Shown: positions 2,148 to 29,301, counted from the first letter of the stretch. The stretch is 32,000 bases of DNA from an uncultured delta proteobacterium (GCA_963827685.1 CAWHBU010000004.1:672943-704942); one strand, 5' to 3'. The notes: a model not told the origin generated them from the sequence alone. Program-made: numbers and translations.

Positions 2148-3833
2148 CTATTTGTCCAGAATAAATACGGCACCCAAGTTTCCGTCTACCCGGATCCTTT
2201 GACCTGTTTTGATCACCTGGGTTCCGGTGAACACGTTCATGACGACGGGGATTCCATACTCCCGACCCACGATGGCGGCATGGGAAAGACTTGCCCCTCG
2301 ATCCACCACCACGCCATTGATCATGCCAAAGACAGGCGTCCAGGCAGGAGAGGTACTCATCGATACAAGGATATCTCCCTTCTGGATCTTAGGTAGATCT
2401 TCGTCTCTGAGGACAACCCTTGCAATTCCTTCCGCCACGCCTGAGGATCCACATGTTCCATAGAGGTCGGCCTTGAGCTCAGGTTTGGGTACAGGCATGC
2501 TTCCGACAACCACTTTGAGCGCGATCGGATCCAACGACTGAACCAGACCGCCTATGGCCTGATCTAAAGTGAAACCTTCTTTCATAATCGCGGGTGGATT
2601 TCCACGCTGCATCCACTCTTGCCAATCTTTTTTACGACGTTCCACCAGTGGCTTCATATTAATTTTATCCGGATTGATCCCGGCTCGCCGCACCTCATCG
2701 GGCATGAGGAAGAAGATGTCATCCGGTTGGTTGATCGCCCCGCTTTTAGCGAATCGCTTTCCCAATGCCAGGCAACTTCTTCTCATCAAGGCATGGGTAT
2801 AAAGGTCGAGATAATGATTGTGCTCCTCGCTGAAGCGGCTGCAGTTCTGGGCTACCTTCATAAGCATTGAAAACCAGCTCTTTTGCTCTGGTGCAATCTT
2901 CCCCAAAACCTCCTTCTCTGCATCCTTCCTTTCCTTCGTCAGTTTCTTTCTGTCTTCGTCCAGGTCGAATTCTCCGCCCTTCTTCAGATACATTTTGATT
3001 GTATCAAATCCAGGGGTAGGGTCCTCCTGCCAGGTCGGTACGTTGATCTCAGCCATCCTCTCCATTCTCCAACCGGCTTCTTTGTCGAGGAACTCGTTAA
3101 ACTCTTTCATAAACTTTTTCCCTTTGTCGCTACCCTCTAATTTAGTTTTGAGTTCCTTGGCGGGAGTATCGGAGAATAGTTTGTCAAGGCCCATATCCTT
3201 CGCTTTTGCGGAGAACTCCCAGAGCCTTCGATCAACCCGGAAGCTTTCGTTATCGAAACCGCTTAATAATTTATGGAAGGTAGAATGGGTATCATCAATT
3301 TTGAGCAACTGTTGGCACAGCTGTTCGAAGAGGACGTAAGGCGTATAGGTTCCGTACATCATATGCATGTGGATCTCCCACATCCTCCGGCAGGTATCGA
3401 TCGTTTCCTCGAAATTGTCCAGAAGCTGGATGTTCGTAGCAGTTTCAACGTTGAGGGTTTTCAAGTTATCATACCGTTTTAGTATTTCCTTTACATAACC
3501 TCCCCAGAGCCCATCGTAGTTCTCCACAAAGGGCCGGATGGCCTCCCTAAACTTTTTCTCCCTTTCAGCTTTTTCCTTATCTGAATCGACCATGAGGAGG
3601 CAGAGATAACCTCCTCCATCCTTGAACCGCCAGTCCCATCCTTTCACTGTGGGAAGCGAAAGGGTTTCGGCACCGTATTGCATTCCATGCCGGCAAAAGT
3701 TGATCCAAAACCATCCAAACATAGGCGTCCACGGCGGGACGGAATGAGTGGCATCAAGAAACCAAGCAGGCGACTGTTCTAAATCATACTTCTCATCAAA
3801 CTCAAATCCTGGAACAACGTCATAAATCTTCAT
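2148..3833 (-). CDS. PEP-utilising-enzyme mobile (phospho-His) domain protein, phenylphosphate synthase alpha (PpsA)-like, 561 aa.
   Basis: C-terminal ..GSSGVAEGIARVV...ILVSMSTSPAWTPVF....VVDRGASLSHAAIVGREYGIPVV carries the swivelling His motif. The N-terminus has the W..D..H..PP..P pattern shared with the 22183 paralogue. The SD AAGGAGGTGG lies before ATG 3833. Confidence 0.85.
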   Translation of the reverse strand: MKIYDVVPGFEFDEKYDLEQSPAWFLDATHSVPPWTPMFGWFWINFCRHGMQYGAETLSLPTVKGWDWRFKDGGGYLCLLMVDSDKEKAEREKKFREAIRPFVENYDGLWGGYVKEILKRYDNLKTLNVETATNIQLLDNFEETIDTCRRMWEIHMHMMYGTYTPYVLFEQLCQQLLKIDDTHSTFHKLLSGFDNESFRVDRRLWEFSAKAKDMGLDKLFSDTPAKELKTKLEGSDKGKKFMKEFNEFLDKEAGWRMERMAEINVPTWQEDPTPGFDTIKMYLKKGGEFDLDEDRKKLTKERKDAEKEVLGKIAPEQKSWFSMLMKVAQNCSRFSEEHNHYLDLYTHALMRRSCLALGKRFAKSGAINQPDDIFFLMPDEVRRAGINPDKINMKPLVERRKKDWQEWMQRGNPPAIMKEGFTLDQAIGGLVQSLDPIALKVVVGSMPVPKPELKADLYGTCGSSGVAEGIARVVLRDEDLPKIQKGDILVSMSTSPAWTPVFGMINGVVVDRGASLSHAAIVGREYGIPVVMNVFTGTQVIKTGQRIRVDGNLGAVFILDK

Positions 3834-4021: not shown

Positions 4022-4924
4022 TCAAGTCCCAATTTCCACAATGAAGCTTCCTATGTTGGCTCCTGTTTTCCTTGCAATTGGATGACATTTTACTTTTAAC
4101 ATGTAAAGAATTGCTTTCCCGTGCACCTGATCCTTCAAGGCCTCATAATTTCCTGTCCCTTTAGCAATCACAAGGTCACTTTTCCTAAAAATGTCAGAGA
4201 GTTGGGACGTGCTTCCCCCTGGTATGAAGAATCCGTTCACCGTAAAAATATTTTCAACGAACTTATCCATAGCAAAGAAGAGGGCATCCTTCCTTGTCGC
4301 ATCCTCGAAAAAAGGATCTTCTTTCACAACTAGATTTACGGTCGCCTCCATCTCCTTGAGTGTGGCGATGAGGAGAGAATCAAATCCTATCTCTCCCGCG
4401 TTATCCGTAAGATACAAGATGCGAGTTGCCCTTTGCGCCGTTCCAAAAACATCACCGATCAAGGAAGGTAACGGATTCTTTCCCTTTAGGATATTGGTAG
4501 CTTCTTGGAATCTGAAGGCCTCACCTGGCACAGTCATTGGAGCGACATTACTTGCCGATGCCAGACGGCAGGCCCTCTTGAATCTCTCCTTGGGATTTCG
4601 TCCTTTTTCAATATATTTTTTCGCAGAGGGTAACAACTTACGCACGAGTTGATTGCTTTTGAGTTTAATGCCTCCATAGTAGTCGGCGGAATGGGATAGG
4701 TATTCATTGATGGAATTGGTAATCGTGTTGCTTAAAGACCCAATGTTGGTCTCCGAATCGAACTCTCTTGCGAGAATCCTGGATATTCGTTTGACGAGCT
4801 GAAAGCGTCCTTTTTCGTTGGCCAGGACTCCTGCTCTTTCATATACCCACTTTAGGATACAGGGAGCACATTCTAAATCAGGCCTCAGAATCGTCCTCCT
4901 TCTCCACTTCAAACAGCCTCGCAT
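4022..4924 (-). CDS. DUF89 / ARMT1-like metal-dependent (damage-control) phosphatase family protein.
   Basis: Motifs LTDNAGEIGFDSLLI and VIAKGTGNYEAL, with an N-terminal CxxC (ECAPC). The start is uncertain: ATG 4924 has no SD, while an internal AAGGAGG precedes a possible non-ATG start about 12 codons in. Confidence 0.7.
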   Translation of the reverse strand: MRGCLKWRRRTILRPDLECAPCILKWVYERAGVLANEKGRFQLVKRISRILAREFDSETNIGSLSNTITNSINEYLSHSADYYGGIKLKSNQLVRKLLPSAKKYIEKGRNPKERFKRACRLASASNVAPMTVPGEAFRFQEATNILKGKNPLPSLIGDVFGTAQRATRILYLTDNAGEIGFDSLLIATLKEMEATVNLVVKEDPFFEDATRKDALFFAMDKFVENIFTVNGFFIPGGSTSQLSDIFRKSDLVIAKGTGNYEALKDQVHGKAILYMLKVKCHPIARKTGANIGSFIVEIGT

Positions 4925-4933
4925 TGCAAAAAG

Positions 4934-7573
4934 CTATCGAGACTGCTTGATCTTTTCCGGAGTAATCGGTAGATCCCGGACACGCAAGCCACAAGCATGA
5001 TAAATAGCATTCGCAATGGCTGGCGCGGTTGGGACATCGGCATACTCCGCCATCCCAGAAGCCCCGAAGGGTCCCTTCGATTTCGGGATATCGAGAGTGA
5101 TCACCTCCATATCGGGCATATCTTTGGCCCTCGGGACCTTAAGCTTGGCGAAGGTATCGGTTTTGGTGTAGACAAAATCTTCCATGAGGGCATATCCGAG
5201 GCCCATGGCAATGCCTCCATGGAGCTGACCTTCAACATGTTGACTATTGATCACCGTTCCAAGATCATGAACGGAAGTGATCTTGAGGACATCCACCTTG
5301 CCCGTCTTCACCTCCACAGCCACCTCTGCCATCTGGATCCCAAAAGAGTAGGTTTCCCAGGGAATCCCTTGACCAGTCTTCGGATCAGGCCTTGAAGTGA
5401 CGGGTTTGTTGATTGCCTTGAAAAGAGTAGGCAAGCCTTTGGCCTTCATCTCGCTATAGGTTTTGACGCGATTTTCCTCCATGGCCTTTTTCAATTCGGC
5501 CACAGCCATCTGGACAGCTTTTCCTGAAACGTAAGTCTGTCGGCTCCCAGCTGAAAAATTCCCATCCGGTGTAATTTCTGTGTCGGTGGTACAGACTTTA
5601 ACCCTTTCCAATGGAAATCCCATTGTCTCGGCGGCGACCTGCCAGAACATCGTATCCGCACCCTGTCCCATGTCCGCCGCCCCAATCCAAACCTGTAACG
5701 TATCATCGGGCAGAAGTTCGGCCCATGCTTCGGATTGATCTGGAGCACTTCGGCCCGGACCAAACCAAACTCCTCCCAATCCCACACCCCGCTTCACTTC
5801 ATCGGTCGTTTTCCCTTTTGCCTCGTTTAATGCTTTTTCATAGAGAGGTTTTATGGTTTCCATACACTCCTGGAAACCAATCGTGTGGTCTAATACCTGG
5901 CCGCAGATCGTTGTATCGCCTTTAACAAAACCATTTTTCATCCTGAGGGCTAAAGGATCCATTTTCAGCTGGGATGCCAACTCGTCGAGGGTGGACTCAA
6001 TGGCAAAAGCTACCTGGGGTACACCAAATCCTCTCATGGCGCCTTTGAAAGCCGTAGTGGTATAAACAGCTTTCCCATAGACATGGGCATTGGGGAACCG
6101 GTAAGGCCCCTGGGCATGGATAACACCTCGCTGTGTCACACTATTGCTAAAGGACTTATAGGCTCCGCCATCCGCCGTGACATCGAAATCCAATGCCATC
6201 AACGTCCCATCCTTTTTGGCTCCCACTTTGACCTTCATGAAGAAGGGATGGCGTTTGGGAGTAGCTGCAAATGTCTCGCTCCTTGTATAGACGAGTTTCA
6301 CCGGTCTTTTGAGCTTCAAGGCCGCAAGGCCCAGAATTCCACCCACGGAGACATCGAGCTTGCCTCCAAAGGCTCCGCCGGTTGGGGTTTGAATCACTCG
6401 AACCTTTTCCAAACCGAGACCCAAGGCCTCAGCAATGGTCTTGCGATGGGCGTGAATATTCTGGCCTGCTGCCATGACCACGAGTTGTCCATTCTCGTGG
6501 ATAAAGGCAACGCCAGAGTCGTTTTCCAAATAAGCATGTTCAACAGTTTGTGTGACATAGCTTTGCTCAACGACAACATCTGACTCCGAAAAACCCTTCT
6601 TGGCGTCACCATGGATGATGGGTTGCTCAAAAAAGAGGTTTGGACGATCGTCATGGACTCTTACGGCACCCTCTTTCAAGGCTTCCTCTGGTGTCAGGAC
6701 TGGTTCGAGAGGTTCATAGGTCACCTCAATCTTTTCGAGGGCATGGGAAGCGATTTCCTCAGAAGTTGCTACTACGGCAACCACTGGATCGCCGATGAAG
6801 CGGACTTTATTACTGCATAGGATGGGCTGATCATCTCCTGCCATCTTCAAGATGTTTGTTCCTTTTACATCTTTGGCAGTGAGAACGGCCAGCACTCCAG
6901 GGATAACCTCCGCCTCTTTCGTGTCAATGTTAATGATCTTGGCGTGGTGATGGGGACTTCTGAGAACCTTGATGTGGGCGCATCCGTCCACAGCGAGATC
7001 AGCAGCGTAGAGAGTGGTCCCCGTTGCCTTCTCGAGGGCGTCCCTTCGTGGAATGGGCTGGCCGAGGGTATTTCCCCCTTTCCATTTTAATCGAATTGAT
7101 TTTGTCTCTCTCCTGAAGTAAGAGGCCGCTAGTTCCACAGCCTCAAAGATCTTCTGGTACCCCGTGCAGCGGCAGATGTGGGGCTGAAGAGCCTTCTTGA
7201 TCTCCTCTCGGGTAGGGTTAAGATTTTCATCCAAGAGGGATTTGGTCCGAATGATCATGCCCGGCGTACAGAAGCCACATTGAATGGCCCCTGTCTTTGC
7301 AAAGGCCAATTGAATGGGATGGGGGTTCTGAAGTGTTCCGATTCCCTCAATGGTCGTTATCTCTTTGCTTTGGGCTTTAGCAACCGGAATCCTGCATGCG
7401 AAGACGACGTCGCCATCCATGAACACAGCGCAGGTGCCGCAATGACCGGCAGAACATGCTTCCTTTGTACCTGTCAACCTGAGATCTTCTCGAATCACTT
7501 TCAGTAAGCTTTTTTGAGGATCAACAATCACTCTTCGAGGGGCTCCGTTCAAGATGAAATTTATCTCCTGCAT
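4934..7573 (-). CDS. Mop-type aldehyde oxidoreductase (xanthine-oxidase family). Fused 2x[2Fe-2S] and molybdopterin-binding domains with no FAD domain, 879 aa.
   Basis: N-terminal CSAGHCGTCAV...C, CGFCTPGMI and CRCTGYQKI ferredoxin-type motifs run directly into a ~700-aa Mo-cofactor domain. This architecture matches Desulfovibrio gigas MOP. The SD GGAGG lies before ATG 7573. Confidence 0.9.
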   Translation of the reverse strand: MQEINFILNGAPRRVIVDPQKSLLKVIREDLRLTGTKEACSAGHCGTCAVFMDGDVVFACRIPVAKAQSKEITTIEGIGTLQNPHPIQLAFAKTGAIQCGFCTPGMIIRTKSLLDENLNPTREEIKKALQPHICRCTGYQKIFEAVELAASYFRRETKSIRLKWKGGNTLGQPIPRRDALEKATGTTLYAADLAVDGCAHIKVLRSPHHHAKIINIDTKEAEVIPGVLAVLTAKDVKGTNILKMAGDDQPILCSNKVRFIGDPVVAVVATSEEIASHALEKIEVTYEPLEPVLTPEEALKEGAVRVHDDRPNLFFEQPIIHGDAKKGFSESDVVVEQSYVTQTVEHAYLENDSGVAFIHENGQLVVMAAGQNIHAHRKTIAEALGLGLEKVRVIQTPTGGAFGGKLDVSVGGILGLAALKLKRPVKLVYTRSETFAATPKRHPFFMKVKVGAKKDGTLMALDFDVTADGGAYKSFSNSVTQRGVIHAQGPYRFPNAHVYGKAVYTTTAFKGAMRGFGVPQVAFAIESTLDELASQLKMDPLALRMKNGFVKGDTTICGQVLDHTIGFQECMETIKPLYEKALNEAKGKTTDEVKRGVGLGGVWFGPGRSAPDQSEAWAELLPDDTLQVWIGAADMGQGADTMFWQVAAETMGFPLERVKVCTTDTEITPDGNFSAGSRQTYVSGKAVQMAVAELKKAMEENRVKTYSEMKAKGLPTLFKAINKPVTSRPDPKTGQGIPWETYSFGIQMAEVAVEVKTGKVDVLKITSVHDLGTVINSQHVEGQLHGGIAMGLGYALMEDFVYTKTDTFAKLKVPRAKDMPDMEVITLDIPKSKGPFGASGMAEYADVPTAPAIANAIYHACGLRVRDLPITPEKIKQSR

Positions 7574-7808
7574 ATCTCAAGACCTCCGATCAAAAAATTT
7601 TCCAACTCAAAGGAAACTTGTTAGGGAAAGACCCCACGAAAAGGTTCCCTGAGATATTCAGAAATTCTATATCGAGAATAGAATGGAGGAAAATTTTCAG
7701 CAGCGAAAGCTGCGTCTTTGCCAGTGATGATCGAAAAAGTCTGAACGCTTGAGTGTTCGTATTGCATTCAAGGCCACCGTGCCAAAGGCACGATGGGGAA
7801 TAAAAGGA

Positions 7809-8561
7809 TTAATGCATGGCCCTCCCGCCATCCACCAAAATGGTCTGGCCGGTGATGAAATCGCTTTCATCCGATGCAAGGAAAATAACAGCCCCAAGAA
7901 GATCATTGGGTTGCTCCAGTCGCCTCAAGGGGGTTTTAGAGACATCGTATTTTGTGACATCAGCGAGATGGCGGCTTGCTTCTGTATCCGTAAATCCTGG
8001 AGCCACGGCATTGATATTAATGTTATGAGGCCCTAATTCAATGGCAAGGGCACGGGTTAAACCGATCACCCCCCCCTTTGAAGATACGTAGTGAATAAAG
8101 CCATAAGACCCTGTAAAAAATACTTCAGAGGAAAGGTTGATAATCTTCCCTTTTCCTTGTTTTTTCATATAAGGGAATACAGCCCTTGTGCAGAGCCAGG
8201 GACCTTTGACATTCACATTCATCACTAAGTCCCATTCGTTGGGATCTATCTCCGTGAAGGATTTCCGAACCAATCCATCGTAGATGGCTGCGCAATTGAC
8301 TAAGATGTCGATCCTGCCGAAGACCTTAATTGTTTCCTCGGCCATCTTAATTGCATCCTTTTCAATGGAGACATCAGCCTGATGGGCCTTAGCCACGCCG
8401 CCCATTGCCTCAATCTCTTTTACAGTTTTTTCCAGATTGGTAATATCCTTCCGGGTTACGGCCATGATCTTGGCTCCCTCTTTTGCCATTCCAATGGCGA
8501 ATTCCCTTCCCAGGCCCTTGGCAGCTCCTGTCACGATTGTCACTTTATCTTTGAGCCTCAT
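7809..8561 (-). CDS. Short-chain dehydrogenase/reductase (FabG-like), 250 aa.
   Basis: TGAAKGLG Rossmann motif, NCAA, and catalytic S...YVSSK. Confidence 0.9.
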   Translation of the reverse strand: MRLKDKVTIVTGAAKGLGREFAIGMAKEGAKIMAVTRKDITNLEKTVKEIEAMGGVAKAHQADVSIEKDAIKMAEETIKVFGRIDILVNCAAIYDGLVRKSFTEIDPNEWDLVMNVNVKGPWLCTRAVFPYMKKQGKGKIINLSSEVFFTGSYGFIHYVSSKGGVIGLTRALAIELGPHNININAVAPGFTDTEASRHLADVTKYDVSKTPLRRLEQPNDLLGAVIFLASDESDFITGQTILVDGGRAMH

Positions 8562-8627
8562 GGTTTTCCTTTCTAATATTATTAATGATCATTGTTGATT
8601 GATCATTGGTAATTTTGCAATGTCTCG

Positions 8628-10292
8628 TTACCAGGCTCTTCCTTTCTTCTCCCAGATTTTCTCCAGCTTGAAGTCTTCTACAATGACCTTGAAACAGTTA
8701 TAACTGGACCCGCGAGCAATTCCCCCCCCGGAATGCATGTTGGAGGAACAGATATACATATTTTTGAGGAAAGGAATTCGATAACTCGAGAGGTCTGGGA
8801 TGGGTCTGAACCGGTCGTTCTGGGAAGCATCCATGGCTCCTTCCACCCATCCGCCCTCGATCATATCGGGATGCCTCATATTTGTATCATAAGGCGTGGT
8901 GATGAAGGCCTCGATGACATTGTCACGTGTCATATTGGGAGCGTAGATCTGCCATTGTTTGAGCATCAAATCCTCCACCTCTTTTTTCATCTTGAGCCAT
9001 TGTCTCTCCGTAAAGAGGTGCAAGGGGGGGGCAAATTCTTCTAACAGAATGGTGTGTTTCCCCTCCGGTGCGCGCGTTTTGTCCCAGATGCTATCCGGTG
9101 CAGCGAGGATATACCACTTTTCAGGAAATCCTTTGGTAAAGATGTCTGCCTGGTATTTCCAGGAGAGGTATTCAGGGTCTTTCTCTCCCATATAGAGTCG
9201 CGGCTGAAGGCCTATATCTGGATTTAAGGAGGCGGCTTTATAATTCGGAAGTTCATGCATGGCCATGTTTCCCCAATAGATCTGAGCGCGGTTATACCGG
9301 ATGTTTCTGATGCGCCTGGCCACTTTTGCAGTAACATAATTTTCTCCCAAGAGTCTGAATATCGTCTGGGGAACTCCCAAATCACTGATCACCAGCTGCT
9401 TTGCCTCAACTTCTATTCCATTTGAAAGTTTGACCCCTTTCGCCCTTCCATTCTCAACGATGACTTTATCTGCTTCAGTCTCCACACAGAACTCTCCTCC
9501 CATGGCACTGAAGGCTCTCTGAAGAGCATGGGTAATGGTATGGGTTCCGCCATAGACAATTGAGGCCGATTCAAAGGAAAGGGCCAGGCCGATCACGTGG
9601 ACAAAGACATACAAGCCAATCACATCCCCTGGGAAACAGCCAGTGGAGGTTTCAATGGCCCTCATGAAGAGACACTGTAGTTCAGGGCTCTCAAAAAGAT
9701 CCATAGCGATCTGGGATCCTGTCATGAATTGATAAACCGGATCGATCCCGTCTACGGGATCGTCACAGAGTTTTTCGAGGGCATTCTTGACTCCCCAGGG
9801 TGTGGGAGGACTATAACGATATTCTCGAAAGGCAGCCCGCCACTTTCTCTGATATTTTCCGAGGAGTTCGAGATAGGTCTCTGCGTCCGTTTTCGAGAAG
9901 CGGGCGATCTCATTGTAGGTCTTCTTGACGTTTTCCTCGGAGTACTGTTCTTTACCCGTTAGGGGGTCGACACGAAATGCCGAATAGCCGACAAAACAGG
10001 TTCCATCTGGATAGACCATCCCTTCATTCTGGTCTGGGAAAATATATTTTAAGCCATACTCCCTCAGGTTGAAATCGGTATAAGCAGGATGGGTCCAGAA
10101 TCGGGTGAAGTGGGCACATGTATTCTGAATAAATCCAGGCAGGGGAAGTTCTTCCCCACAGGCCCCTCCCCCTAATTCATGCTGACGTTCGAAGATCACT
10201 GTTTTAAGACCTGCATGTTGCAAATAGCAGGCAATGATCGTCCCGTGGTGTCCTCCACCAACGATAATCGCATCATAACTTGTATCTGGCAT
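8628..10292 (-). CDS. FAD-dependent oxidoreductase of the phytoene-desaturase (CrtI/COG1233) type. Limonene-dehydrogenase CtmA/B-like subunit, 554 aa.
   Basis: N-terminal YDAIIVGGGHHGTIIACYLQHAGLKTVIFERQHELGGG. Paralogous to the ORF at 10553..12169. The SD AAAGGAGG lies before ATG 10292. Confidence 0.85.
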   Translation of the reverse strand: MPDTSYDAIIVGGGHHGTIIACYLQHAGLKTVIFERQHELGGGACGEELPLPGFIQNTCAHFTRFWTHPAYTDFNLREYGLKYIFPDQNEGMVYPDGTCFVGYSAFRVDPLTGKEQYSEENVKKTYNEIARFSKTDAETYLELLGKYQRKWRAAFREYRYSPPTPWGVKNALEKLCDDPVDGIDPVYQFMTGSQIAMDLFESPELQCLFMRAIETSTGCFPGDVIGLYVFVHVIGLALSFESASIVYGGTHTITHALQRAFSAMGGEFCVETEADKVIVENGRAKGVKLSNGIEVEAKQLVISDLGVPQTIFRLLGENYVTAKVARRIRNIRYNRAQIYWGNMAMHELPNYKAASLNPDIGLQPRLYMGEKDPEYLSWKYQADIFTKGFPEKWYILAAPDSIWDKTRAPEGKHTILLEEFAPPLHLFTERQWLKMKKEVEDLMLKQWQIYAPNMTRDNVIEAFITTPYDTNMRHPDMIEGGWVEGAMDASQNDRFRPIPDLSSYRIPFLKNMYICSSNMHSGGGIARGSSYNCFKVIVEDFKLEKIWEKKGRAW

Positions 10293-10308
10293 GAGATTTC
10301 CTCCTTTT

Positions 10309-10542
10309 CTATTTCTTCTTCATCATTAACGAAAGGGCGTAATAGAGGATGGAGGGTTTAAAGAGGAGCTTGATGAAGTTCCTCAGGTCCGCTCCTTCCA
10401 AGGTGGCAGTAATAACCCAGTGGATGGGTTCGGTGGACTCGATTTTCAGTTTCAGGGTTTCCGCTCCTTCTGGATCTTTAAAGAGTTGAGTAAAGGATGC
10501 AATCATGGTGGTCTGGCCCAAACCTGTCGAATTGACTTTCAT
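10309..10542 (-). CDS. Small hypothetical protein (77 aa) encoded between the two CrtI-like genes.
   Basis: ATG 10542..10540 lies 6 nt after AGGAGG and 10 nt after the upstream stop (TAG 10555..10553). It ends 16 nt before the next gene. The longer form in the track (to 10662) would overlap the upstream CDS. Confidence 0.55.
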   Translation of the reverse strand: MKVNSTGLGQTTMIASFTQLFKDPEGAETLKLKIESTEPIHWVITATLEGADLRNFIKLLFKPSILYYALSLMMKKK

Positions 10543-10552
10543 GATGAACCTC

Positions 10553-12169
10553 CTATAGCAGACCGTTTGCTTTCGCCTTGGTGACAATCTCAGGTTCTTT
10601 CCACCATTTTTGGATCCCCAGGTCCTGAGCGATTCGGTTGGCAGCGTTATAACCTGCACCATAGGTCACTAACCCTCCGGGGAAGGTGGAAGCTCCACAA
10701 ATGTAAAGATTTTTAATCGGCGTGGCATATTGAGAACAGAGTTCGTTTGGCCTCAAGTATCCCATCTGAAGAGGATAGTAACCTCCTTGCTTAATGGATC
10801 CTTCCACCATGTCTGCAAATTTATTTTCGATGTCCAGTGGAGAGGCAATATAGGTCCAGAGAATATTATCCTCCGTCATATTAGGTGCGTGCTTCTTAAG
10901 TTTATCGATCAATCCTTTGGCATGTTCTTGGCGGATCTTATACCACCTATCAGGGCCTCCCTCCTTTAGACGGTAGGGTGCATGTTCTGATATTAAACCG
11001 GTGTGTCTCCCTGGAGGTGCTTCTGAGGGATCGAAAATGGTTGGAAAGCAGCAGTTGAACCCGGATGGCTTGAGTTCTCCATTTTTTAAGGCTTTAAAAT
11101 GATCGATCAGATTCTCTTCCGTCTCAAATCCGAGAACATAAATAAAAGCTTTATTTAAATCGGGATTCGAAGCTGCAGCAGCAAATTGGGGTACATTAAA
11201 AAGCGCAAGGTGGATATCGAAGAGGGACCACTTCTCCCATTTCCAGTCCTTCGTCCGCGTGACAAGATCTTTTGGGAGATCCTTCTCCCCGATATACTTG
11301 AGAAACGTTTGATAGGGGTCGATGCTGGAGGCAACAAACTTGGTAGCTGTGTAAACCGTTCCATCATCTAATTCAATCCCTTTTGCCGTTCCATTTTCCA
11401 CGATGATTCTCTTGATGATCTGACTTCCTAAGATCATTCCTCCATGACGATAAAGAAATTTAGACATCAAGTTGGCCATATGATGAGAGCCTCCCACGCA
11501 GAGCCGATAGTTAGAAGCTCGATTGATCATGAGTGGAACCAGGTAACCCAGCCCTTCCAGATCATAATCCAATCCCCACAGACAGGTGGCATAGAGCATT
11601 AGCGTCCTGATTTGATTATTTTCGAAAATACTATGCACGATATCGATTGGTTTCTTTTCAGAAAGGGCACTGATTTCTTGACCAAGAGGACTGGAATGGA
11701 GTTTCACGACCTGTTCGAAGGCTGGCTTGGCCATATCGTAAGTAGCGGGTCCCAAGAAGGCATCTACATATTCCTTAAACCGTTTATAGGTATCCCGATA
11801 GGCATCGGCATCTTTCTTAGAGAATTGAGCAAATGAAGCACATGTTTTTTCCACATCCGAATAGATGCAAAGGCTACGGCCATCTGCGAAAGGCATCGCC
11901 ATGACCAAATCGGGATGAATATATTGGAGATCATAAGTTTTATCCAGGTCGAGATCAGGGAATACTGGGGCATAATCCACCATGGGATGGTAGATCGCAT
12001 GGGTATTGTGAATAAACCCGGGGATCGTGACCATCTCCGAGCAAAGGCCCCCTCCCATTTCGTATCTCTTTTCTAAGATCAGGATCTTTAGCCCTGCTTT
12101 GGAAAGGTAACAACCTAAAGTGAGTCCATTGGGCCCACCACCAATGATAATGCCATCGTATTGGGGCAT
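10553..12169 (-). CDS. FAD-dependent oxidoreductase of the phytoene-desaturase (CrtI/COG1233) type. CtmA/B-like subunit, 538 aa.
   Basis: N-terminal [38 protein letters not shown]. The SD GGAAAGGAG lies before ATG 12169. Confidence 0.85.
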
Positions 12170-12227: not shown

Positions 12228-12245
12228 AACTACATTTTCCAGTAT
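12228..12245. repeat. Left copy of the 18-bp target-site duplication (aactacattttccagtat).
   Basis: Identical 18-mer at 13785..13802, directly abutting both IS ends. Confidence 0.8.
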
Positions 12246-13784
12246 GTTTAAGCGAAGTCAATATGTCCCCTTAACTGCAACGTGAAAATGTCCCCTCCAA
12301 GGGTTTTGATCTTGACCCTTGAGTGAGTGGATGAACTTCAATTTGAGTTTCTTTTTTTTAAGTGAGCTCTCATAAGAGATCCCTATTAATGGGCAACAAG
12401 CGAAATGTGAATCGCCAGGTTGCGCTACAATCAACGATGTTCGATGAGCAGGGGGTAAGGGTCACCTTCCCTGGAGGGTGCTGAAGCGAGATAGACCCAG
12501 TGGTAATCTTTAACTCCTTTTGCATGGTGTTTCTTTCGGGGAAGAGCTCTCACCGGTTCCCGGAGGGAAGTAGGAGGATGTTTCGCAATCAACTGATCTT
12601 GAGCGTAGATTCTCCAAGATCCGTTGAGAAGCTGCCGAGCTTCCACCTTGAGCTTCGCATAGGATCTTCTTTGAGGGCCAGGGGGAATATCGAGAACCAA
12701 TCCTCCCAGCCGAGCCGTATTATCGTTGCCGACCGTAGCCGTATAGCGAAAGCTGATGATTCGATCCAGGTCCAGATGGTTTGGGACTTCTCTCCAGGCT
12801 TTTTGGGATTCTCTGGGTCTGACGGCAAAGCGACGGTTAAAGTCTTTTAAAAAGGTTGATTGTAAAAAGCGATTGGCCTCTTCCATCGTTACAATTTCTT
12901 TTAAACGGAGTTCTGCTCCCAGACGATCCTGCAGGGTGGCAAAGAGTTTTTCTATCCTTCCTTTGGCCTGAGGAGAAAGAGCCGAGATCGGCTCAATCCC
13001 CAAGGCTTCGAGAGCTAATCCGACTTGAGTCGGTTCCTGTCGGCCAGCGAGTTGCTCTTCCAAGCTCCAGTGAGGGTCATTCCGATGCAACGACCCGTGG
13101 CGATCCTGATAGATCATCATTGGGATTCCATATTTTTTAATCATCTCTTTAAGAAGCCAGAAATAGCCTGCGGAACCTTCAAAGGGAAAGAAACGGGCGG
13201 CCAGCAGTTTCCCGGTCGCATCATCGATGGCAGCCATCAGACAGCAAGGTGGAAGGTCTCGGCCAAACCAGGGGTGGGGACTCCCATCCCAGAGGACCAT
13301 CCATCCTTCTTGAGCCATTCGCTCCCGTCGCTTTCGATGCTTAGGTCCCCGACGCCTGCGCTTGGGTGCCATCCCCGCCTCCCGCCGTAACTTCCTCACC
13401 GTCTCTCGATTCAAATCGATCCCTTCGCACTCCCGAAGTTTCTCCGTAAAATGGGTATCGTTAAAGTCCCAGTAAACCTCTTCCGACAGCTTTAATACCC
13501 TTTCTCGTAAGGACTCCTTGAGCCGGTGGTTCGAAGGTCGTCCCCTGTTACCATGCACCAAGGCTTTGATCCCTCTCTCCCGGATCGCTTGCCCAATCCG
13601 CTTCGCCTGACGGTAGGACACACCTATCCTCTCTCCAGCCTCCCTCAAGGTGATCTTCCCTACCTTTACGATCTCCATCAGATGCCACCTCTTTAACTCC
13701 CTCTGCCCCATGAGTATCTTCTCCTGTTCCATGGGGACATTTTAACTTAAGCAGTTAATGGGGACATTTCTACTTTGCTAACAC
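12246..13784 (-). mobile_element. Intact insertion sequence (1539 bp) with ~50-bp imperfect terminal inverted repeats. rve/DDE transposase, IS1202/ISNCY-like or IS481-like.
   Basis: The left end is gtttaagcgaagtcaatatgtccccttaactgc..aaaatgtcccc. The reverse complement of the right end is gtgttagcaaagtagaaatgtccccattaactgc..aaaatgtcccc. Each end carries two ATGTCCCC motifs. The element is flanked by an 18-bp direct repeat. Confidence 0.85.
12431..13732 (-). CDS. Transposase with an N-terminal HTH and an rve integrase-core (DDE) domain, 433 aa.
   Basis: LWDGSPHPWF, IYQDRHGSL and SPQAKGRIEKLF form a D, D, E triad pattern. A basic KRRRRGPKHRKRRER linker is present. Confidence 0.9.
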   Translation of the reverse strand: MEQEKILMGQRELKRWHLMEIVKVGKITLREAGERIGVSYRQAKRIGQAIRERGIKALVHGNRGRPSNHRLKESLRERVLKLSEEVYWDFNDTHFTEKLRECEGIDLNRETVRKLRREAGMAPKRRRRGPKHRKRRERMAQEGWMVLWDGSPHPWFGRDLPPCCLMAAIDDATGKLLAARFFPFEGSAGYFWLLKEMIKKYGIPMMIYQDRHGSLHRNDPHWSLEEQLAGRQEPTQVGLALEALGIEPISALSPQAKGRIEKLFATLQDRLGAELRLKEIVTMEEANRFLQSTFLKDFNRRFAVRPRESQKAWREVPNHLDLDRIISFRYTATVGNDNTARLGGLVLDIPPGPQRRSYAKLKVEARQLLNGSWRIYAQDQLIAKHPPTSLREPVRALPRKKHHAKGVKDYHWVYLASAPSREGDPYPLLIEHR

Positions 13785-13802
13785 AACTACATTTTCCAGT
13801 AT
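13785..13802. repeat. Right copy of the 18-bp target-site duplication.
   Basis: Identical to 12228..12245. Confidence 0.8.
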
Positions 13803-14014: not shown

Positions 14015-14959
14015 TTGAATCTCAAACAATTAGAAGCTTTTTATTTGGTGGTAAAGAGGAAGAGTTTTACTCGGGCAGCAGAAGAATTGAATGTGACCCA
14101 GCCTGCTGTCACCATCCAAGTCAAATCCTTAGAGAAGTCATTGAATTTGAAACTCATCAATCAGATAGGGAAAAGAGTACAATTAAATGAAGCTGGAGAA
14201 CTCCTCTACGAATATGCGGAGAAAATCTTTGATCTTGTCAACGATGCCGATGAGAAGATGAGGGATTTCAAGAAACTGATGAGAGGGACGCTTCAGATTG
14301 GGACAACAAAGAATTATGCCCGTTACATCATGCCTTCTTTGCTCTCCGAGTTTCAGAGGAGATTTCCTCGTATCAAGGTCATTTTAGATGAAGGGAACTC
14401 CGAGGATATGGCCAAGAGTGTCTTTGAGAAGAAAAATGAACTCGCCCTCATCTCCCAACTGAACCTTGATCGAAAAATCAAATCAACCTTTTTCTCGACA
14501 GTAGAGTTTGTTCTGGTTGTTTCACCCGAACACAGGTTCTCGCAGAGGAAGAGCATCTCCCTGAGAGAATTGAATGGTGAACCGGTGATTTTGAGGGAAA
14601 AGGGATCTGGTTCAAGGGCGGCCATTTTGAGGAAATTTCAGGAATACGGGATCTGGCCATCGGTAATTACTGAGGCAAGCAGTTTGGACTTTATCGTGGG
14701 ATATGTGAAACAGAACAAAGGGGTTTCCTTCATGTTTCAGCCTGATATCGAAGAGGAATTGGAGAAGGGAACCTTGAAAGTTATCTTCATCGAAGAGGGA
14801 AACATTATTTTCTTTACTGATCTCATCTATCACAGTGAAAAATCTCTCTCACCTCCTAGCCAAGCCTTCCTAAAAATGGTGGGAGAATTAAGGGGCCAGG
14901 GTAAAGGGGAGTTTAGGGCAGGGTTCGTCCCGCCAAGTTCCGTTCTTCAAACCTACTGA
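14015..14959 (+). CDS. LysR-family transcriptional regulator (TTG start), 314 aa.
   Basis: N-terminal HTH LKQLEAFYLVVKRKSFTRAAEELNVTQPAVTIQVKSLEKSL. AAGGAG lies 6 nt before TTG 14015. Confidence 0.9.
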   Translation: MNLKQLEAFYLVVKRKSFTRAAEELNVTQPAVTIQVKSLEKSLNLKLINQIGKRVQLNEAGELLYEYAEKIFDLVNDADEKMRDFKKLMRGTLQIGTTKNYARYIMPSLLSEFQRRFPRIKVILDEGNSEDMAKSVFEKKNELALISQLNLDRKIKSTFFSTVEFVLVVSPEHRFSQRKSISLRELNGEPVILREKGSGSRAAILRKFQEYGIWPSVITEASSLDFIVGYVKQNKGVSFMFQPDIEEELEKGTLKVIFIEEGNIIFFTDLIYHSEKSLSPPSQAFLKMVGELRGQGKGEFRAGFVPPSSVLQTY

Positions 14960-14966
14960 AAATCCA

Positions 14967-15701
14967 TCAACATCTTCGTCTTTTATCCTCACTGTAGAGA
15001 TTTAGAAATTGATTGACGGCCTCCTGGGCGAATTCTCGAGTGTTAAGGTGGAGATTGAGCTCGATGATCGGGATCTTCGGATCGATATGAATCTTCAACT
15101 CGTCGAGGAAGGCGCGATCCCCCACTGGATCATAAAGAGGCATCCCTTCCTTATCGAGAGAAGACCATCCCTTCAAGGGGATGAGAATAGCCACAGGTCC
15201 TCTTGACCGATTTAATTTTCTGGCCACCTCTCCTGCAATTTCTTTCAACTCCTGAGGATTGGTGCGAGCTTGAACCCTAAAAGCATCCGGAATGAAAAGT
15301 TTTCTATTTTTGATATCCTTTGATACCCAAAGGGGATCTCCTCGATCACCTCTTTCCAATGGCCCACAACTGAGCATATCAAATCCGCAAGGCGTGATAA
15401 TTTGAGGAATGCCCAGTTTCCCGGCGGTCACCACAACATTTCTTCTCAATTGAGCAGCCAGCTTTTCTGAAATCTTTTTTACCAAGGCGTCCTCTTTATG
15501 CCCGATAAAAGTAAAATTGGAAGAGGTGGCACTCCATTTTTTCGGATTCTTTAAGCTGGGCCTCGGAATGGCGATTCCCACAGCACCGATATGAAATCGG
15601 GTTCCTCCCCAGGTGGAAATCAAGAGGTCTTGGCCCACCTCTTGAACAAAACCCTGGATCCTGAATCGACCTTTCGAAATTTCAACCAAAAATCTTTTCA
15701 T
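14967..15701 (-). CDS. Chimeric ORF. The N-terminal ~95 aa are LpdD-like (small prFMN-chaperone partner of UbiD decarboxylases), joined to the C-terminal ~150-aa domain of a UPF0261 (Tm-1-like) protein.
   Basis: Residues 1-95 (..DLLISTWGGTRFHIGAVGIAIPRPSLKNPKKWSATSSNFTFIGHKEDALVKKISEKLAAQL..VVVTAG) fit the LpdD pattern as I remember it. From GKLGIPQIITPCG...ILIPLKGWSSLDKEGMPLYDP the sequence is collinear with residues ~270-405 of the 16463..17680 product. There is no obvious SD before ATG 15701. Confidence 0.65.
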   Translation of the reverse strand: MKRFLVEISKGRFRIQGFVQEVGQDLLISTWGGTRFHIGAVGIAIPRPSLKNPKKWSATSSNFTFIGHKEDALVKKISEKLAAQLRRNVVVTAGKLGIPQIITPCGFDMLSCGPLERGDRGDPLWVSKDIKNRKLFIPDAFRVQARTNPQELKEIAGEVARKLNRSRGPVAILIPLKGWSSLDKEGMPLYDPVGDRAFLDELKIHIDPKIPIIELNLHLNTREFAQEAVNQFLNLYSEDKRRRC

Positions 15702-16462: not shown

Positions 16463-17680
16463 TTATGTAAACAGCCCAATGCTTTCTTTCACAATCGTCT
16501 GGGCGAAAAGAGGTTCCTCCATGTTAGCCTCGATTTCTATGAGTTCAATACCAGATTTCAGTTCCTTTTGCAGTTCTGAAACAAATATTTTATCCTCTTG
16601 GGGGTCATAGGTCGGGCTATTTGGTAAATCCACTGATGACCATCCTTTAAGAGGGATGATGACTTTCACCGGTGCCTTTGATTTATTCAGTTTTTCTGCA
16701 AACGCATGCGCTGCTTTTACAAGTTCGTCAGGGGAAGCTCTGAGCCATGTACGAAATTTGTCGAGGTCATATTTTCTTCGACTTTTATGATCATTGGTAT
16801 ATTTAGATTTGGGAGGGGTAATATGATTCACCCCGCACGTGGAGATTATCTGAGGAATCCCTACCTTCCCTGCCGTCTCCATCCGATTGGGTCCTGCATC
16901 CCTCATACCACCAACAAGATGCTCTATGACACCTCCAGGAGCTAAATCAATTACCCCGTTGAAGAGCCCCTGCTCTATCATTTTTTCCATAGCCCTATCC
17001 CCTATCCCTGCTGCAGAAAATCCTATAACCTGGTATCCTTTCCCTTCTAAGGACGTCCTCACGTTACTAGCACACTTTTCGCAAGGACCTAACATAGTAA
17101 GAGCAATAACATTCCTCTTCTTGTAAGCGTAAACTGTTTGAAGAGTGGGCGCATCCACCATACCACAGATGGCATAAGCTCCTCTATCTATTACATTTTT
17201 AAGGATATCGCTTAGTCCTGAGATTTCTATAACAGAATGGATGAGGGCGATATCGCCTATTTCAATATACCGGGTTGACATACCAGGGAGGGCAGCGGTT
17301 GAGGAAATCATAACTTTTGGAACTCCAAATGGAAGAATCCTCATCACATCTGTAGCCATTAAAGAACCAGTAGACCCACCCATACCTATGATCCCATCAA
17401 GTTTTCCTTCTCTCCACATGTTAAGGGCAAGAGTCGCCGCACCTTTTGTCATGATCGCAGTGTTTTTTGCCCTTTCGTGGGATATAAGAATTTCCTCAAG
17501 TTTACTCCCTCCTGCCTCTGCCACCTTGTGAGCTGAAATATCAGCATTCATGCCCTCAGCCAATCTCATAGAGATGTCAAGAATCAAAGGATTTTTACCG
17601 AGTTGCCCTATTTTATCCCTTAGATAGAATGTTTCTGTTCCTTTGGTATCAAGGGTAGAGATGATCAAGATTGTTTTCAT
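16463..17680 (-). CDS. UPF0261 / Tm-1-like ATP-binding domain protein, full length (405 aa).
   Basis: N-terminal KTILIISTLDTKGTETFYLRDKI, then GMGGSTGS, ETAGKVGIPQIIS and IPLKGWSS. It starts 7 nt after the ligase stop. Confidence 0.75.
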   Translation of the reverse strand: MKTILIISTLDTKGTETFYLRDKIGQLGKNPLILDISMRLAEGMNADISAHKVAEAGGSKLEEILISHERAKNTAIMTKGAATLALNMWREGKLDGIIGMGGSTGSLMATDVMRILPFGVPKVMISSTAALPGMSTRYIEIGDIALIHSVIEISGLSDILKNVIDRGAYAICGMVDAPTLQTVYAYKKRNVIALTMLGPCEKCASNVRTSLEGKGYQVIGFSAAGIGDRAMEKMIEQGLFNGVIDLAPGGVIEHLVGGMRDAGPNRMETAGKVGIPQIISTCGVNHITPPKSKYTNDHKSRRKYDLDKFRTWLRASPDELVKAAHAFAEKLNKSKAPVKVIIPLKGWSSVDLPNSPTYDPQEDKIFVSELQKELKSGIELIEIEANMEEPLFAQTIVKESIGLFT

Positions 17681-19334: not shown

Positions 19335-19395
19335 TTCATTCACCTCTTGTCATGAAATTCCAATATCAACCGCAGTATCGGAGAAGGGCAGTTTT

Positions 19396-20817
19396 TTAAC
19401 CTTCAAATCCATACTCTTTCCAGCGAGCCTTAACCTTTTTCACGATCTCTTCATCCAGTTTTATTTCAACCGGTTTTCGTTCCCATTCAAATGGAATACA
19501 GGCATCCATGATGATTCGCGAAACAATTTCTCTGGCATCAACGGGAAGGGCAGGATCAAGCGGGGTGGAACGCCCTCTCTTAATGATCTCTGTGCTCCGG
19601 TAAGGATCATAACGCATGGACAAGGCCCATAAGACCCTATCAATGTCATCGGCTCTGATATCGTCATCCACTACAATGACCCCTTTCATGCCGTAGTGGC
19701 CTGTCGTGGTGGAGATGACTGCTGTGCCCACTTGCATGGAGTGGCCAGGGTACATCTGTTTGACAGATACGATTCCCCAGAATCTGCCGCCCGTTTCAGG
19801 GGGGATATATACAGACTGGATGCCCGGGACCTTCATATTCTCCAGGTCTGTCCAGAGGGTTGCTGTGCGGTTCAGAGATTGAATCATATGGGTATCGGTC
19901 ACTGGTTTCCCTACAGAGGTGGACCAAAAGACTGGATTGTTCCGGTGGAGAATCCGCTTCACGTTCAGACAGGGCTTGGGCCACTCCTCCCCGGTCTTTC
20001 CAGAATAGTAACCAGTATATTCCCCAAAGGGTCCTTCTTGCCTGAATTTTTCAGGATCGGTCTCAATCTCACCCTCCAAGATAATTTCAGCCGTACTGGG
20101 AAGGGGAAGGCCGGTCAGGTCGCTTTTGATAACTTCACAGGGGGTTCCTCTTAAGGATCCCACAATATCATATTCGCAGAGACCGGCAGAGACCAGAGTG
20201 CTCCCAGCAAGGAAGAGAAGGGGATCACCCCCAATCACCGCTGCTGCAGGCATTGTTTTTTTCATCTTCTGATATTTCTTCAACATGAAGTCAGCATGTT
20301 TCCCTTTGATGATCTGGACTCCTGCGGTCTTTTCATCCAAGACCTGCATTCGATAGGTTCCCAGATTGACCCAATCACTCTCAGGATCTTTAGTGATGAC
20401 AAAGTGGGCTGTTCCAATAAAGCGGCCACCATCCATCGGATAGAATTTGGGTACAGGGAAGTTGAGGAGGTTGATATCACGCCCTTGGATGATCTTCTCT
20501 GTAATTGGCCCGGTTTTGACCTCCACACGCGGGATTAATTTTTTGGTCGTCAGTTCCATCCATCTCTTTGCCATGTCGTACATTGAAAAATGGAGTGGCA
20601 TTCCGAGAGCAATGGCCAGACGCTTTGGTGAGGTTAAGGCGCTTGTCAGTAAAGGAATCTGGTAGTCTTTCACTTTTTCGAAGAGAAGAGCTGGGCCCTT
20701 CTTCTCCTCGTTCAACTTCGCGATGTGGGAGAGTTCGAGATTCCAGTCGACTTCAGCCTTTATCCTCTTTAGTTCTCCTTCCTCTTCACACTTTTTTATA
20801 AAATCTCGAAGATCCAT
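19396..20817 (-). CDS. UbiD-family prFMN-dependent (de)carboxylase, 473 aa. Its size class matches phenylphosphate carboxylase alpha/beta and 4-hydroxybenzoate decarboxylases.
   Basis: Signature EGPFGEYTGYYSG with family-typical N-terminal DLR.FI..C...GEL..I...VD. The SD GAAGGAGG lies before ATG 20817. Confidence 0.9.
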   Translation of the reverse strand: MDLRDFIKKCEEEGELKRIKAEVDWNLELSHIAKLNEEKKGPALLFEKVKDYQIPLLTSALTSPKRLAIALGMPLHFSMYDMAKRWMELTTKKLIPRVEVKTGPITEKIIQGRDINLLNFPVPKFYPMDGGRFIGTAHFVITKDPESDWVNLGTYRMQVLDEKTAGVQIIKGKHADFMLKKYQKMKKTMPAAAVIGGDPLLFLAGSTLVSAGLCEYDIVGSLRGTPCEVIKSDLTGLPLPSTAEIILEGEIETDPEKFRQEGPFGEYTGYYSGKTGEEWPKPCLNVKRILHRNNPVFWSTSVGKPVTDTHMIQSLNRTATLWTDLENMKVPGIQSVYIPPETGGRFWGIVSVKQMYPGHSMQVGTAVISTTTGHYGMKGVIVVDDDIRADDIDRVLWALSMRYDPYRSTEIIKRGRSTPLDPALPVDAREIVSRIIMDACIPFEWERKPVEIKLDEEIVKKVKARWKEYGFEG

Positions 20818-29274: not shown

Positions 29275-29301
29275 AAATTATACAGTGTTGGAGGTGAATG
29301 C

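Follow-up and report, generated by a model that had tools for sequence, protein, structure and literature searches.

How could a methyl group be oxidized to a carboxyl group without O2, and on which substrate? This question is raised by a stretch of 32,000 nucleotides of DNA from an uncultured delta proteobacterium (GCA_963827685.1 CAWHBU010000004.1:672943-704942), called the window throughout this paper, in which two paralogous flavoproteins, here named FlvA and FlvB, are encoded together with a 77-residue protein, a short-chain dehydrogenase/reductase (SDR), a molybdenum-containing aldehyde oxidoreductase (AOR) and a DUF89 phosphatase. In a first-pass annotation of this DNA, the six genes were read as a candidate module that takes a methyl group through the alcohol and the aldehyde to the acid, with a terpenoid or an alkyl-aromatic compound as possible substrates. 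Based on the analyses summarized here, the operon that contains them, which is widespread among strict anaerobes, most likely turns a 4-alkylphenol, p-cresol in the simplest case, into a hydroxybenzoate by an O2-independent route, during which the oxygen of the phenol would be masked as a phosphate ester. This is the reading we favour, although its chance of being right is put at slightly less than even.

Organization of the Flv Operon

All six genes were confirmed on the minus strand at the coordinates given for them, and Pfam agreed for each family that it matches. The flavoprotein motifs quoted in the first-pass annotation were found in the translations. FlvA (10553-12169, 538 amino acids) is followed by the small conserved protein (10309-10542, 77 amino acids, beginning MKVNSTGLG), FlvB (8628-10292, 554 amino acids), a classical SDR (7809-8561; adh_short_C2, E 1.6e-60), a Mop-type Mo AOR (4934-7573; Fer2, Fer2_2, Ald_Xan_dh_C and MoCoBD_1/2, without a FAD domain) and a DUF89/ARMT1-like metal-dependent phosphatase (4022-4924; PF01937, E 1.7e-44). 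The unit had been taken to end at 4022, but the co-directional string runs on past that position through PpsA1, the swivel-His component of a dikinase (2148-3833; PEP-utilizers domain), PpsB1, its ATP-grasp component (1093-2079; PPDK_N, E 1e-108), an ABM-fold protein (689-1009; 106 amino acids, PF03992, the ATG at 1009 being read from the sequence) and a NIPSNAP-like tandem alpha/beta-barrel protein (1-564), whose gene is cut by the window edge. The Flv operon, as it is called here, is composed of ten minus-strand genes from 12169 down to the window edge, and the six genes first noticed are its central part. Scans of the window for promoters and terminators gave a signal no better than that of shuffled sequence.

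The Flavoproteins FlvA and FlvB

The two flavoproteins are paralogous, sharing 30% identity across 554 alignment columns (E 7e-68), and dinucleotide-binding motifs were read in both translations, GGGPNG in FlvA and GGGHHG...FERQHELGGG in FlvB. Public annotation of FlvA homologues is only generic ('phytoene dehydrogenase-like'). The pair had been likened to limonene dehydrogenase CtmAB of Castellaniella defragrans, a heteromeric phytoene-dehydrogenase-like pair (CtmA and CtmB are 27% identical) that catalyzes the water-dependent hydroxylation of a methyl group beside a pi-system (PMC4109377), and CtmAB had been regarded as the only characterized enzyme of this kind. A second characterized relative was described in 2024, the alpha/beta delta24-sterol desaturase (delta24-SD) of Sterolibacterium denitrificans, which shows 34% identity to CtmA, 38% to CtmB and 26% between its own subunits (PMC11061730). 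Both delta24-SD subunits carry covalent FMN on the His of the motif G-F-[LR]-x-[NS]-[TL]-H-A, and both delta24-SD and CtmAB bind flavin covalently at this residue (PMC11061730).

The delta24-SD alpha and beta sequences used as queries were taken from the supplement of PMC11061730. FlvA matched the beta subunit over its full length (36% identity, E 5e-114; 37.7% in the global alignment), and in the global alignment its His57, in the motif GFIHNTHA, aligned exactly with the flavinylated His57/His58 of delta24-SD. H54, T56 and H57 are invariant in 30 FlvA homologues, and the third position of the motif is Ile or Leu, compared with the published [LR]. FlvB is 27% identical to the alpha subunit (E 7e-43; 30.0% in the global alignment) and 26-27% identical to the beta subunit. 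The His motif was published for both subunits of delta24-SD and is present in FlvA, whereas FlvB has Cys59 at the column of the flavin-binding His (PGFIQNTCAH). The form PGF[ILV]QN[TP]CAH, with the Cys, was found in 31 of the 33 FlvB orthologues listed; in one of the exceptions (L013) the Cys is kept in a divergent motif, and in the other (L029) the row is out of register.

Because of the full-length similarity to delta24-SD and the aligned His57, the two proteins are placed in the CtmAB/delta24-SD family. FlvA is a beta-type member of this family and not a carotenoid desaturase, and FlvB appears to be a divergent, weakly alpha-type member in which a Cys replaces the flavin-binding His. The connection to CtmA (CDM25290) and CtmB (CDM25289) themselves is drawn entirely through the published identities of delta24-SD.

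It was also considered whether the pair could be biosynthetic desaturases of carotenoids or other isoprenoids, of the CrtI, CrtN or CrtO type. The public annotation, the partial matches to CrtO and CrtI models and the CrtI-type fold of the FlvA AlphaFold model (pLDDT 86.9) are in line with this idea, but the scores lie far under the cut-offs, with 78.4 bits for FlvA and 48.2 bits for FlvB against 238.1 on the CrtI-family model TIGR02734, and 200.8 and 152.7 bits against 1000 on the CrtO model; no cut-off of the CrtD or CrtISO equivalogs was reached either. The best PDB matches of FlvA, 4rep and 4dgk, are only 15-18% identical, and no carotenoid genes were found in the window or in the related loci examined. 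The CtmAB-like nature first proposed for the flavoproteins thus stands, and the carotenoid explanation is effectively refuted. The PDB structure search returned no solved member of the CtmAB/delta24-SD family. A VAO/PCMH/GlcDEF-type flavoprotein of anaerobic benzene degradation (2026 paper) was considered as another relative and set aside as an unrelated enzyme type.

Conservation of the Operon and the 77-Residue Protein

FlvA homologues with 57-96% identity, many of them from metagenome-assembled genomes (MAGs) of peat, groundwater, sediments and digesters, occur in Thermodesulfobacteriota, Desulfomonilaceae, Thermincola, Desulfosporosinus, other Bacillota, Chloroflexota and Thermoleophilia. 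Co-occurrence was counted in the 31 loci that extend for 9 kb or more on the downstream side of FlvA, termed long loci. The gene of the small protein sits between those of FlvA and FlvB in 30 of them; FlvB is present in 29, and the SDR gene immediately follows it in 29. A PpsA1-type dikinase component and an aldehyde oxidoreductase of any type were each found in 25 long loci, a phosphatase of any type in 21, and an ABM or YdhR protein in 22. The Pps-like pair and the phosphatase, which had been treated as periphery, are therefore conserved operon members and key to the pathway logic. The ABM-fold protein is also a conserved member of the operon. As to the last gene, the NIPSNAP-like product is 42% identical to a 204-residue protein of locus L019, and a full-length homologue of 219 residues, with a faint NIPSNAP match, is encoded after ABM on short contigs whose ABM protein is identical to that of the window.

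The 77-residue open reading frame (ORF) is a genuine gene, since it is conserved across four phyla. Its invariant residues (S5 T6 G7 L8 G9 T11, P39, H41 W42, G50, D52 and R54) are shared across Thermodesulfobacteriota, Bacillota, Chloroflexota and Thermoleophilia. The protein has zero cysteines, and no Pfam or NCBIfam model matched it. It is probably a third subunit or an assembly factor of the flavoenzyme.

In Dehalococcoidia MAGs (L033-L036), an FlvA homologue with 53-55% identity occurs with a homologue of the small protein, but one has to go several kb to reach the nearest FlvB-like genes, whose identity is only 20-34%; no SDR, kinase or AOR was detected in these loci by homology. This arrangement probably represents a different subfamily with another function.

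Proposed Alcohol, Aldehyde and Phosphate-Ester Steps

The SDR is proposed to be the alcohol dehydrogenase of the route. Among the solved structures, those nearest to it include FabG enzymes, BbsD and (S)-1-phenylethanol dehydrogenase; they are generic and none is diagnostic, and primary and secondary alcohol substrates are not separable by them. The Mop-type enzyme matches the Desulfovibrio AORs 1dgj and 1sij/1vlb over the full length (590 and 584 bits). Its residues 5-877 align with 1dgj, with GASGMAE opposite GASGVGE, the latter presumably being the site of the catalytic Glu in the Desulfovibrio enzymes, and on NF045668 it scores 826 bits, under the equivalog cut-off of 1100. Like the AORs of D. 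gigas and D. desulfuricans (Mop; 1vlb, 1dgj), it is a FAD-less single chain with two [2Fe-2S] and Mo-cofactor domains, but it differs from them in being embedded in a catabolic operon and in being interchangeable with a tungsten enzyme. The DUF89 protein is related to the solved DUF89 proteins 2ffj and 2g8l and is proposed to act last in the route, cleaving off the aryl phosphate.

The position of the AOR is occupied by a Mop-type Mo enzyme in 14 of the long loci and by a tungsten-type AFOR in 13. The Mo and W enzymes are unrelated and are swapped in otherwise syntenic operons; an AFOR is present, for instance, in L009, where FlvA shares 89% identity with that of the window, and in the Desulfomonile-type loci L015 and L026. 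The position of the phosphatase is taken by a DUF89 protein, an HD-domain protein or, in the Bacillota locus L048, a low-molecular-weight phosphotyrosine-type phosphatase (LMW-PTP). Such swaps were seen both within and between clades. Because non-homologous replacements occur at both positions, aldehyde oxidation and phosphate-ester hydrolysis appear to be real steps of the pathway to which the kinase belongs. The proposed sequence from methyl group to alcohol, aldehyde and carboxylate was strengthened by the exchange of Mo and W enzymes. A further link is provided by a Chloroflexi MAG (JACQYF010000176.1; L045, 6623-9136), in which an 837-residue fusion joins a PpsA1-type N-terminal part of 428 residues to AFOR_C. 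The kinase part of this fusion is 58% identical to the window's PpsA1 and is without the swivel-His domain; the substrate-binding part of the kinase is therefore tied to the aldehyde step.

A different arrangement was found in Desulfosporosinus (L046, 1-9807) and Thermoleophilia (L047, 15517-21053). There, in place of the kinase and the AOR, the core of FlvA, small protein, FlvB and SDR is accompanied by carboxylation genes, encoding biotin carboxylase, BCCP, an HMGL-like/PYC_OADA carboxyltransferase, a PaaK-like CoA ligase and DUF35, a combination that follows the logic of the 4-ethylphenol/hydroxyphenylethanone pathways. These loci bear on an alternative of the 4-ethylphenol type, in which FlvAB would hydroxylate a benzylic methylene, the SDR would yield a ketone of the 4-hydroxyacetophenone type and the dikinase would phosphorylate the ketone like HpeHI/AcvAB, the route being completed by a carboxylase encoded elsewhere and the phosphatase, as in Hpe/Xcc. 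SDRs typically take secondary alcohols, and the presence of (S)-1-phenylethanol dehydrogenase among the solved relatives agrees with this, as does the case of HpeHI, where a carboxylase and a phosphatase act after a two-component dikinase. However, there is no biotin carboxylase in the window's 32 kb, and the route has no aldehyde intermediate, whereas an AOR is kept in 25 of the 31 long loci with two types swapping. For the Flv operon, both the ketone-forming part of this alternative and its completion by carboxylation are considered unlikely, if worth keeping in mind. The two loci suggest that the core may accept different 4-alkylphenols or that the secondary-carbon chemistry is correct in some lineages.

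The Dikinase, the Cre-Like Logic and the Probable Substrate

The C-terminal PEP-utilizers domain of PpsA1 contains SLSHAAIV, and Rph_4th and PEP-utilizers domains were found in the PpsA1 orthologues. PpsA1 is predicted to be the substrate-binding and swivel-His part of a divergent two-component small-molecule dikinase. Another such pair, PpsA2B2, is encoded in the window (PpsA2, 22111-24030). PpsA1 is only 25% identical to PpsA2, and on NF006153, a PpsA-type model with a cut-off of 578 bits, it scores 240.8 bits, compared with 883.8 for PpsA2. PpsA2 qualifies as the PpsA of a phenylphosphate synthase, and PpsA1 does not. NCBIfam has no model specific to PpsA1, and the tblastn matches of PpsA1 against plasmids, annotated 'PEP-utilizing enzyme', are only 23-32% identical. 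Because of the low identity to PpsA2 and the score under the NCBIfam cut-off, the substrate of PpsA1 is unreadable from homology. PpsB1 is 48.5% identical to PpsB2 and matches 9goj (E 6e-60), a 387-residue chain deposited as 'phosphoenolpyruvate synthase' that we take to be HpeI; PpsB2 also matches 9goj, and the solved structures thus fail to discriminate the kinase clade. The catalytic His is preceded by Ser in PpsA1 (Ser-His), as reported for PpsA and CreH, but by Cys in the canonical-scoring PpsA2 (Cys-His), as reported for HpeH.

The closest known logic is that of the Cre pathway for 4-cresol, which was absent from the considerations of the first-pass annotation. The cre operon of Corynebacterium glutamicum encodes the kinase CreHI, the P450 system CreJEF, the alcohol dehydrogenase CreG, the benzaldehyde dehydrogenase CreC and the phosphohydrolase CreD; degradation of 4-cresol starts with the phosphorylation of the hydroxyl group by CreHI, and the end product is 4-hydroxybenzoate. 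The Flv operon matches this list of dikinase, methyl hydroxylase, alcohol dehydrogenase, aldehyde oxidation and phosphohydrolase by role. As expected of a Cre-type pathway, a two-component dikinase is present, with swivel-His PpsA1 and ATP-grasp PpsB1, and the SDR, the Mop-type AOR and the DUF89 protein are encoded in one co-directional string with it. The differences lie in the enzymes. The Cre hydroxylase is an O2-dependent P450, whereas a flavoenzyme of unrelated fold stands in its place in the Flv operon, and no P450, ferredoxin or ferredoxin reductase is encoded in the window; the Cre aldehyde dehydrogenase is of the NAD type, in contrast to the Mo or W oxidoreductase of the Flv loci; and PpsA1, with about 25% identity (to PpsA2), lies apart from CreH, HpeH and PpsA, which share about 45%. 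The Flv operon is thus Cre-like in logic but not a Cre member, because the defining P450 is replaced by an unrelated enzyme.

A phenolic substrate and the Cre-like logic are indicated because the dikinase and three non-homologous phosphatase families travel with the flavoprotein core; the conserved kinase and phosphatase would point to a phenolic, phosphorylated compound rather than to a terpene. In addition, the regulators of the Bacillota loci carry aromatic-sensing XylR_N and V4R domains, and the core is present at 88-91% identity in a Syntrophorhabdus MAG, a genus in which cultured S. aromaticivorans is capable of syntrophic p-cresol degradation. The regulators and the Syntrophorhabdus core are suggestive of p-cresol.

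A terpenoid had been named first among the possible substrates. According to this explanation, a terpenoid or other non-phenolic allylic methyl group would be oxidized like limonene to perillate, and the Pps-like genes and DUF89 would be unrelated to the route. The kinship with CtmAB through delta24-SD and the co-directional genes of alcohol- and aldehyde-oxidizing enzymes downstream are consistent with it. It is nevertheless improbable, in view of the conservation of dikinase and phosphatase in the core's operons in several phyla, the interchange of three phosphatase families, the aromatic-sensing regulators, the lack of monoterpene ring-cleavage genes in the window and the phenol module as the operon's consistent neighbour.

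Proposed Pathway for O2-Independent Alkylphenol Oxidation

In the favoured pathway, the divergent dikinase PpsA1/PpsB1 would first phosphorylate the phenol, using ATP. FlvA and FlvB, acting as a heteromer with the 77-residue protein as the likely third component, would then oxidize the benzylic methyl group with oxygen from water, a reaction of the type catalyzed by CtmAB. The alcohol would be oxidized to the aldehyde by the SDR, and the aldehyde to the acid by the FAD-less Mop-type Mo enzyme. Finally, the DUF89 phosphatase would free 4-hydroxybenzoate, and a CoA ligase encoded in the neighbouring phenol module could activate this acid. The alkylphenol route and the phenol module would in this way converge on 4-hydroxybenzoate.

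Several points weigh against this pathway. Every step is deduced from genes. The substrate in particular is not assignable through the kinase, since PpsA1 is too divergent for assignment by homology, and relatives in its family also phosphorylate non-phenolic hydroxyls, as rifampin phosphotransferase does. The exact phosphorylated intermediates of the Cre pathway enter the comparison only as Du et al. reportedly described them in 2016. The 31 loci are not independent, as two related deltaproteobacterial clades dominate, and the arrangement in L046 and L047 suggests a ketone-carboxylation variant of the 4-ethylphenol/acetophenone type. An insertion sequence (IS) element upstream of FlvA may have altered expression of the operon in this genome. 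With regard to the flavoenzyme, FlvA and FlvB are tied to CtmA and CtmB only through delta24-SD, and the characterized relatives differ in their reactions, since CtmAB hydroxylates and delta24-SD desaturates (PMC11061730). Moreover, limonene dehydrogenase needs an acceptor of positive potential, and it has been argued that an enzyme of this type could not work in highly reduced cells, such as those that reduce sulphate or make methane. The route implies an electron acceptor as well, and no gene for one is evident in the window. Possibly, the replacement of NAD enzymes by Mo/W aldehyde oxidoreductases, which would be ferredoxin- or flavodoxin-linked, supplies low-potential electrons that could offset a high-potential hydroxylation. 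HdrBC-like CCG/Fer4 genes are found after the operon in just two loci, L045 and L048.

The same enzymes could also be imagined to work in the reductive direction, as an electron sink in which a carboxylate is reduced to the aldehyde and the alcohol, the alcohol is phosphorylated to provide a leaving group, and FlvAB yields the methyl group. The hosts are strict anaerobes, and W- and Mo-type AORs can run backwards on low-potential donors. Yet the catabolic LysR- and XylR-type regulators and the linkage to phenol-activating and CoA-ligase genes fit degradation, the phosphatase would be superfluous, and the CtmAB/delta24-SD family offers no precedent, which together make this direction very improbable.

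If the favoured pathway is generalized, strict anaerobes, among them syntrophs, sulphate reducers, Bacillota and Chloroflexota, would hold a third O2-independent route of the p-cresol type, proceeding through an aryl phosphate and employing a three-component enzyme of the CtmAB family with His- and Cys-flavin sites and the 77-residue partner, together with Mo/W aldehyde oxidoreductases. This wider proposal is plausible, but we hold it more loosely than the pathway itself. So far the Cre route, which begins with a phosphorylation, is known only in a form that relies on an O2-dependent P450, and two O2-independent p-cresol routes are known. In the literature that could be searched, no paper was found that joins CtmAB-like or phytoene-dehydrogenase-like enzymes with phenylphosphate synthase, phenol kinases or anaerobic cresyl-phosphate metabolism. 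If true, the proposal would offer a testable account of p-cresol degradation by syntrophs such as Syntrophorhabdus, would extend the CtmAB/delta24-SD family to aromatic substrates and obligate anaerobes, and would add to it a Cys variant of flavin attachment and a third subunit. It would also point to O2-free biocatalysts for the selective benzylic C-H oxidation of alkylphenols.

Comparison With Characterized Flavoenzymes and p-Cresol Routes

The ctm route resembles the proposed one in its pair of phytoene-dehydrogenase-like subunits and in its order, since after the hydroxylation the alcohol and then the aldehyde are oxidized and the acid is ligated to CoA (PMC4109377), as proposed here for the methyl group. 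The ctm cluster differs in having ferredoxin and ferredoxin reductase genes (CtmEF) and two small hypothetical genes after ctmB (PMC4109377), and it is without a kinase, a phosphatase or a Mo/W aldehyde oxidoreductase. The ctm genes belong to a denitrifier, and limonene dehydrogenase depends on a high-potential acceptor.

With delta24-SD, the Flv operon shares two adjacent paralogous flavoproteins of the CrtI fold and, as proposed, a role in O2-independent catabolism. However, delta24-SD uses a radical mechanism to desaturate the side chain of a sterol, has the His in both subunits in contrast to the invariant Cys of FlvB, and belongs to a steroid context, whereas the surroundings of the Flv operon are aromatic and phenolic. 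The Flv operon also differs in the conserved 77-residue gene between the subunit genes and in having the beta-type gene first.

The known O2-independent routes for p-cresol start with p-cresol methylhydroxylase, a VAO/PCMH flavocytochrome, or with hydroxybenzylsuccinate synthase, which catalyzes fumarate addition. They share with the proposed pathway the substrate and the end point, 4-hydroxybenzoate or 4-hydroxybenzoyl-CoA, but the enzyme families are unrelated and neither route has a phosphorylation step.

Upstream Region and the Adjacent Phenol Module

Upstream of FlvA lies an ISNCY-family element (approximately 12239-13799, minus strand) with a transposase ORF at 12431-13732 (NF033594, 370 bits) and terminal inverted repeats at 12277-12295 and 13760-13778. 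The element is located about 70-110 bp upstream of the FlvA start and splits the divergent promoter region between FlvA and a LysR-type regulator (14015-14959, plus strand; HTH_1 and LysR_substrate). In the closest relatives (L011, L002, L014 and L031) the IS segment is missing at this site, and a short intergenic region alone separates FlvA from the divergent LysR gene. The element may uncouple the operon from the LysR regulator in this genome. A LysR gene is the divergent partner of FlvA in 21 of the 31 long loci, and Bacillota have the XylR_N/V4R regulators instead.

The adjacent phenol module is composed of PpsA2B2, a PpcB-type UbiD, UbiX and a CoA ligase. The acyl/aryl-CoA ligase (17688-19343, minus strand; AMP-binding and AMP-binding_C) reaches no NCBIfam equivalog, and the UbiD-family protein (19396-20817, minus strand) is a beta-type subunit of phenylphosphate carboxylase (TIGR02724, 651 bits against a cut-off of 469). 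Both had been placed in the neighbouring operon and are indeed present, but their operon is set apart from the Flv operon by the IS element and the divergent LysR gene. The module (CoA ligase, UbiD and PpsA2B2) is next to the Flv operon in the Desulfomonile-type loci as well, so that in both deltaproteobacterial clades the operon lies beside a module leading from phenol to 4-hydroxybenzoyl-CoA.

This neighbourhood has a bearing on the explanation that FlvAB is a desaturase like delta24-SD, which might, for example, aromatize an alicyclic ketone made by the SDR to a phenol, to be phosphorylated for UbiD-dependent carboxylation. The closest characterized relative of FlvA does desaturate, genes for a kinase, a UbiD enzyme and a CoA ligase lie close by, and an aromatizing dehydrogenation would yield low-potential electrons, suiting strict anaerobes. 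But the conserved aldehyde oxidoreductase is left unexplained, a canonical phenylphosphate synthase pair, PpsA2B2, is already encoded in the window, and the Bacillota and Chloroflexi loci retain kinase, AOR and phosphatase with no UbiD nearby. This desaturation is regarded as no less improbable than the terpenoid route.

Directly after PpsA2B2, a 387-residue protein without a Pfam or NCBIfam match is encoded on the plus strand (25254-26417). In systems of the T. aromatica type and in L019, this position is held instead by a CBS-domain, PpsC-like protein.

UPF0261 (Tm-1-like) proteins are encoded in the window at 14967-15701 and 16463-17680 on the minus strand, and also in L046, L047 and L048. 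In most lineages, also in those that have no UbiD, they occur together with the flavoprotein core or with the phenol module, and this company with the core is left unexplained by the favoured pathway. The copy beside LysR1 (244 residues, PAC_bac and UPF0261_C) is without the N-terminal domain found in relatives. A further UPF0261 gene (26480-27698, minus strand) consists of two overlapping ORFs in different frames: the ORF at 26853-27698 covers the N-terminal domain and runs into the C-terminal domain, the remainder of which is encoded by the ORF at 26480-26956. In a tblastn search, a full-length UPF0261 homologue matched both ORFs in their different frames. The split is a frameshifted pseudogene or an assembly error.

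Other Features of the Window

Scans of the window for tRNA genes and Rfam families detected no features. The region 30000-32000 is low in GC, with 35-40% compared with about 46% elsewhere, and contains no long ORF, tRNA or Rfam match. An overlapping ORF pair on the plus strand (29257-29954) resembles a VapBC-type toxin-antitoxin system, as judged from the sequences alone: a 97-residue ribbon-helix-helix-like protein is followed by a 135-residue protein beginning MRVVIDTNIFVSS, which is typical of PIN domains.

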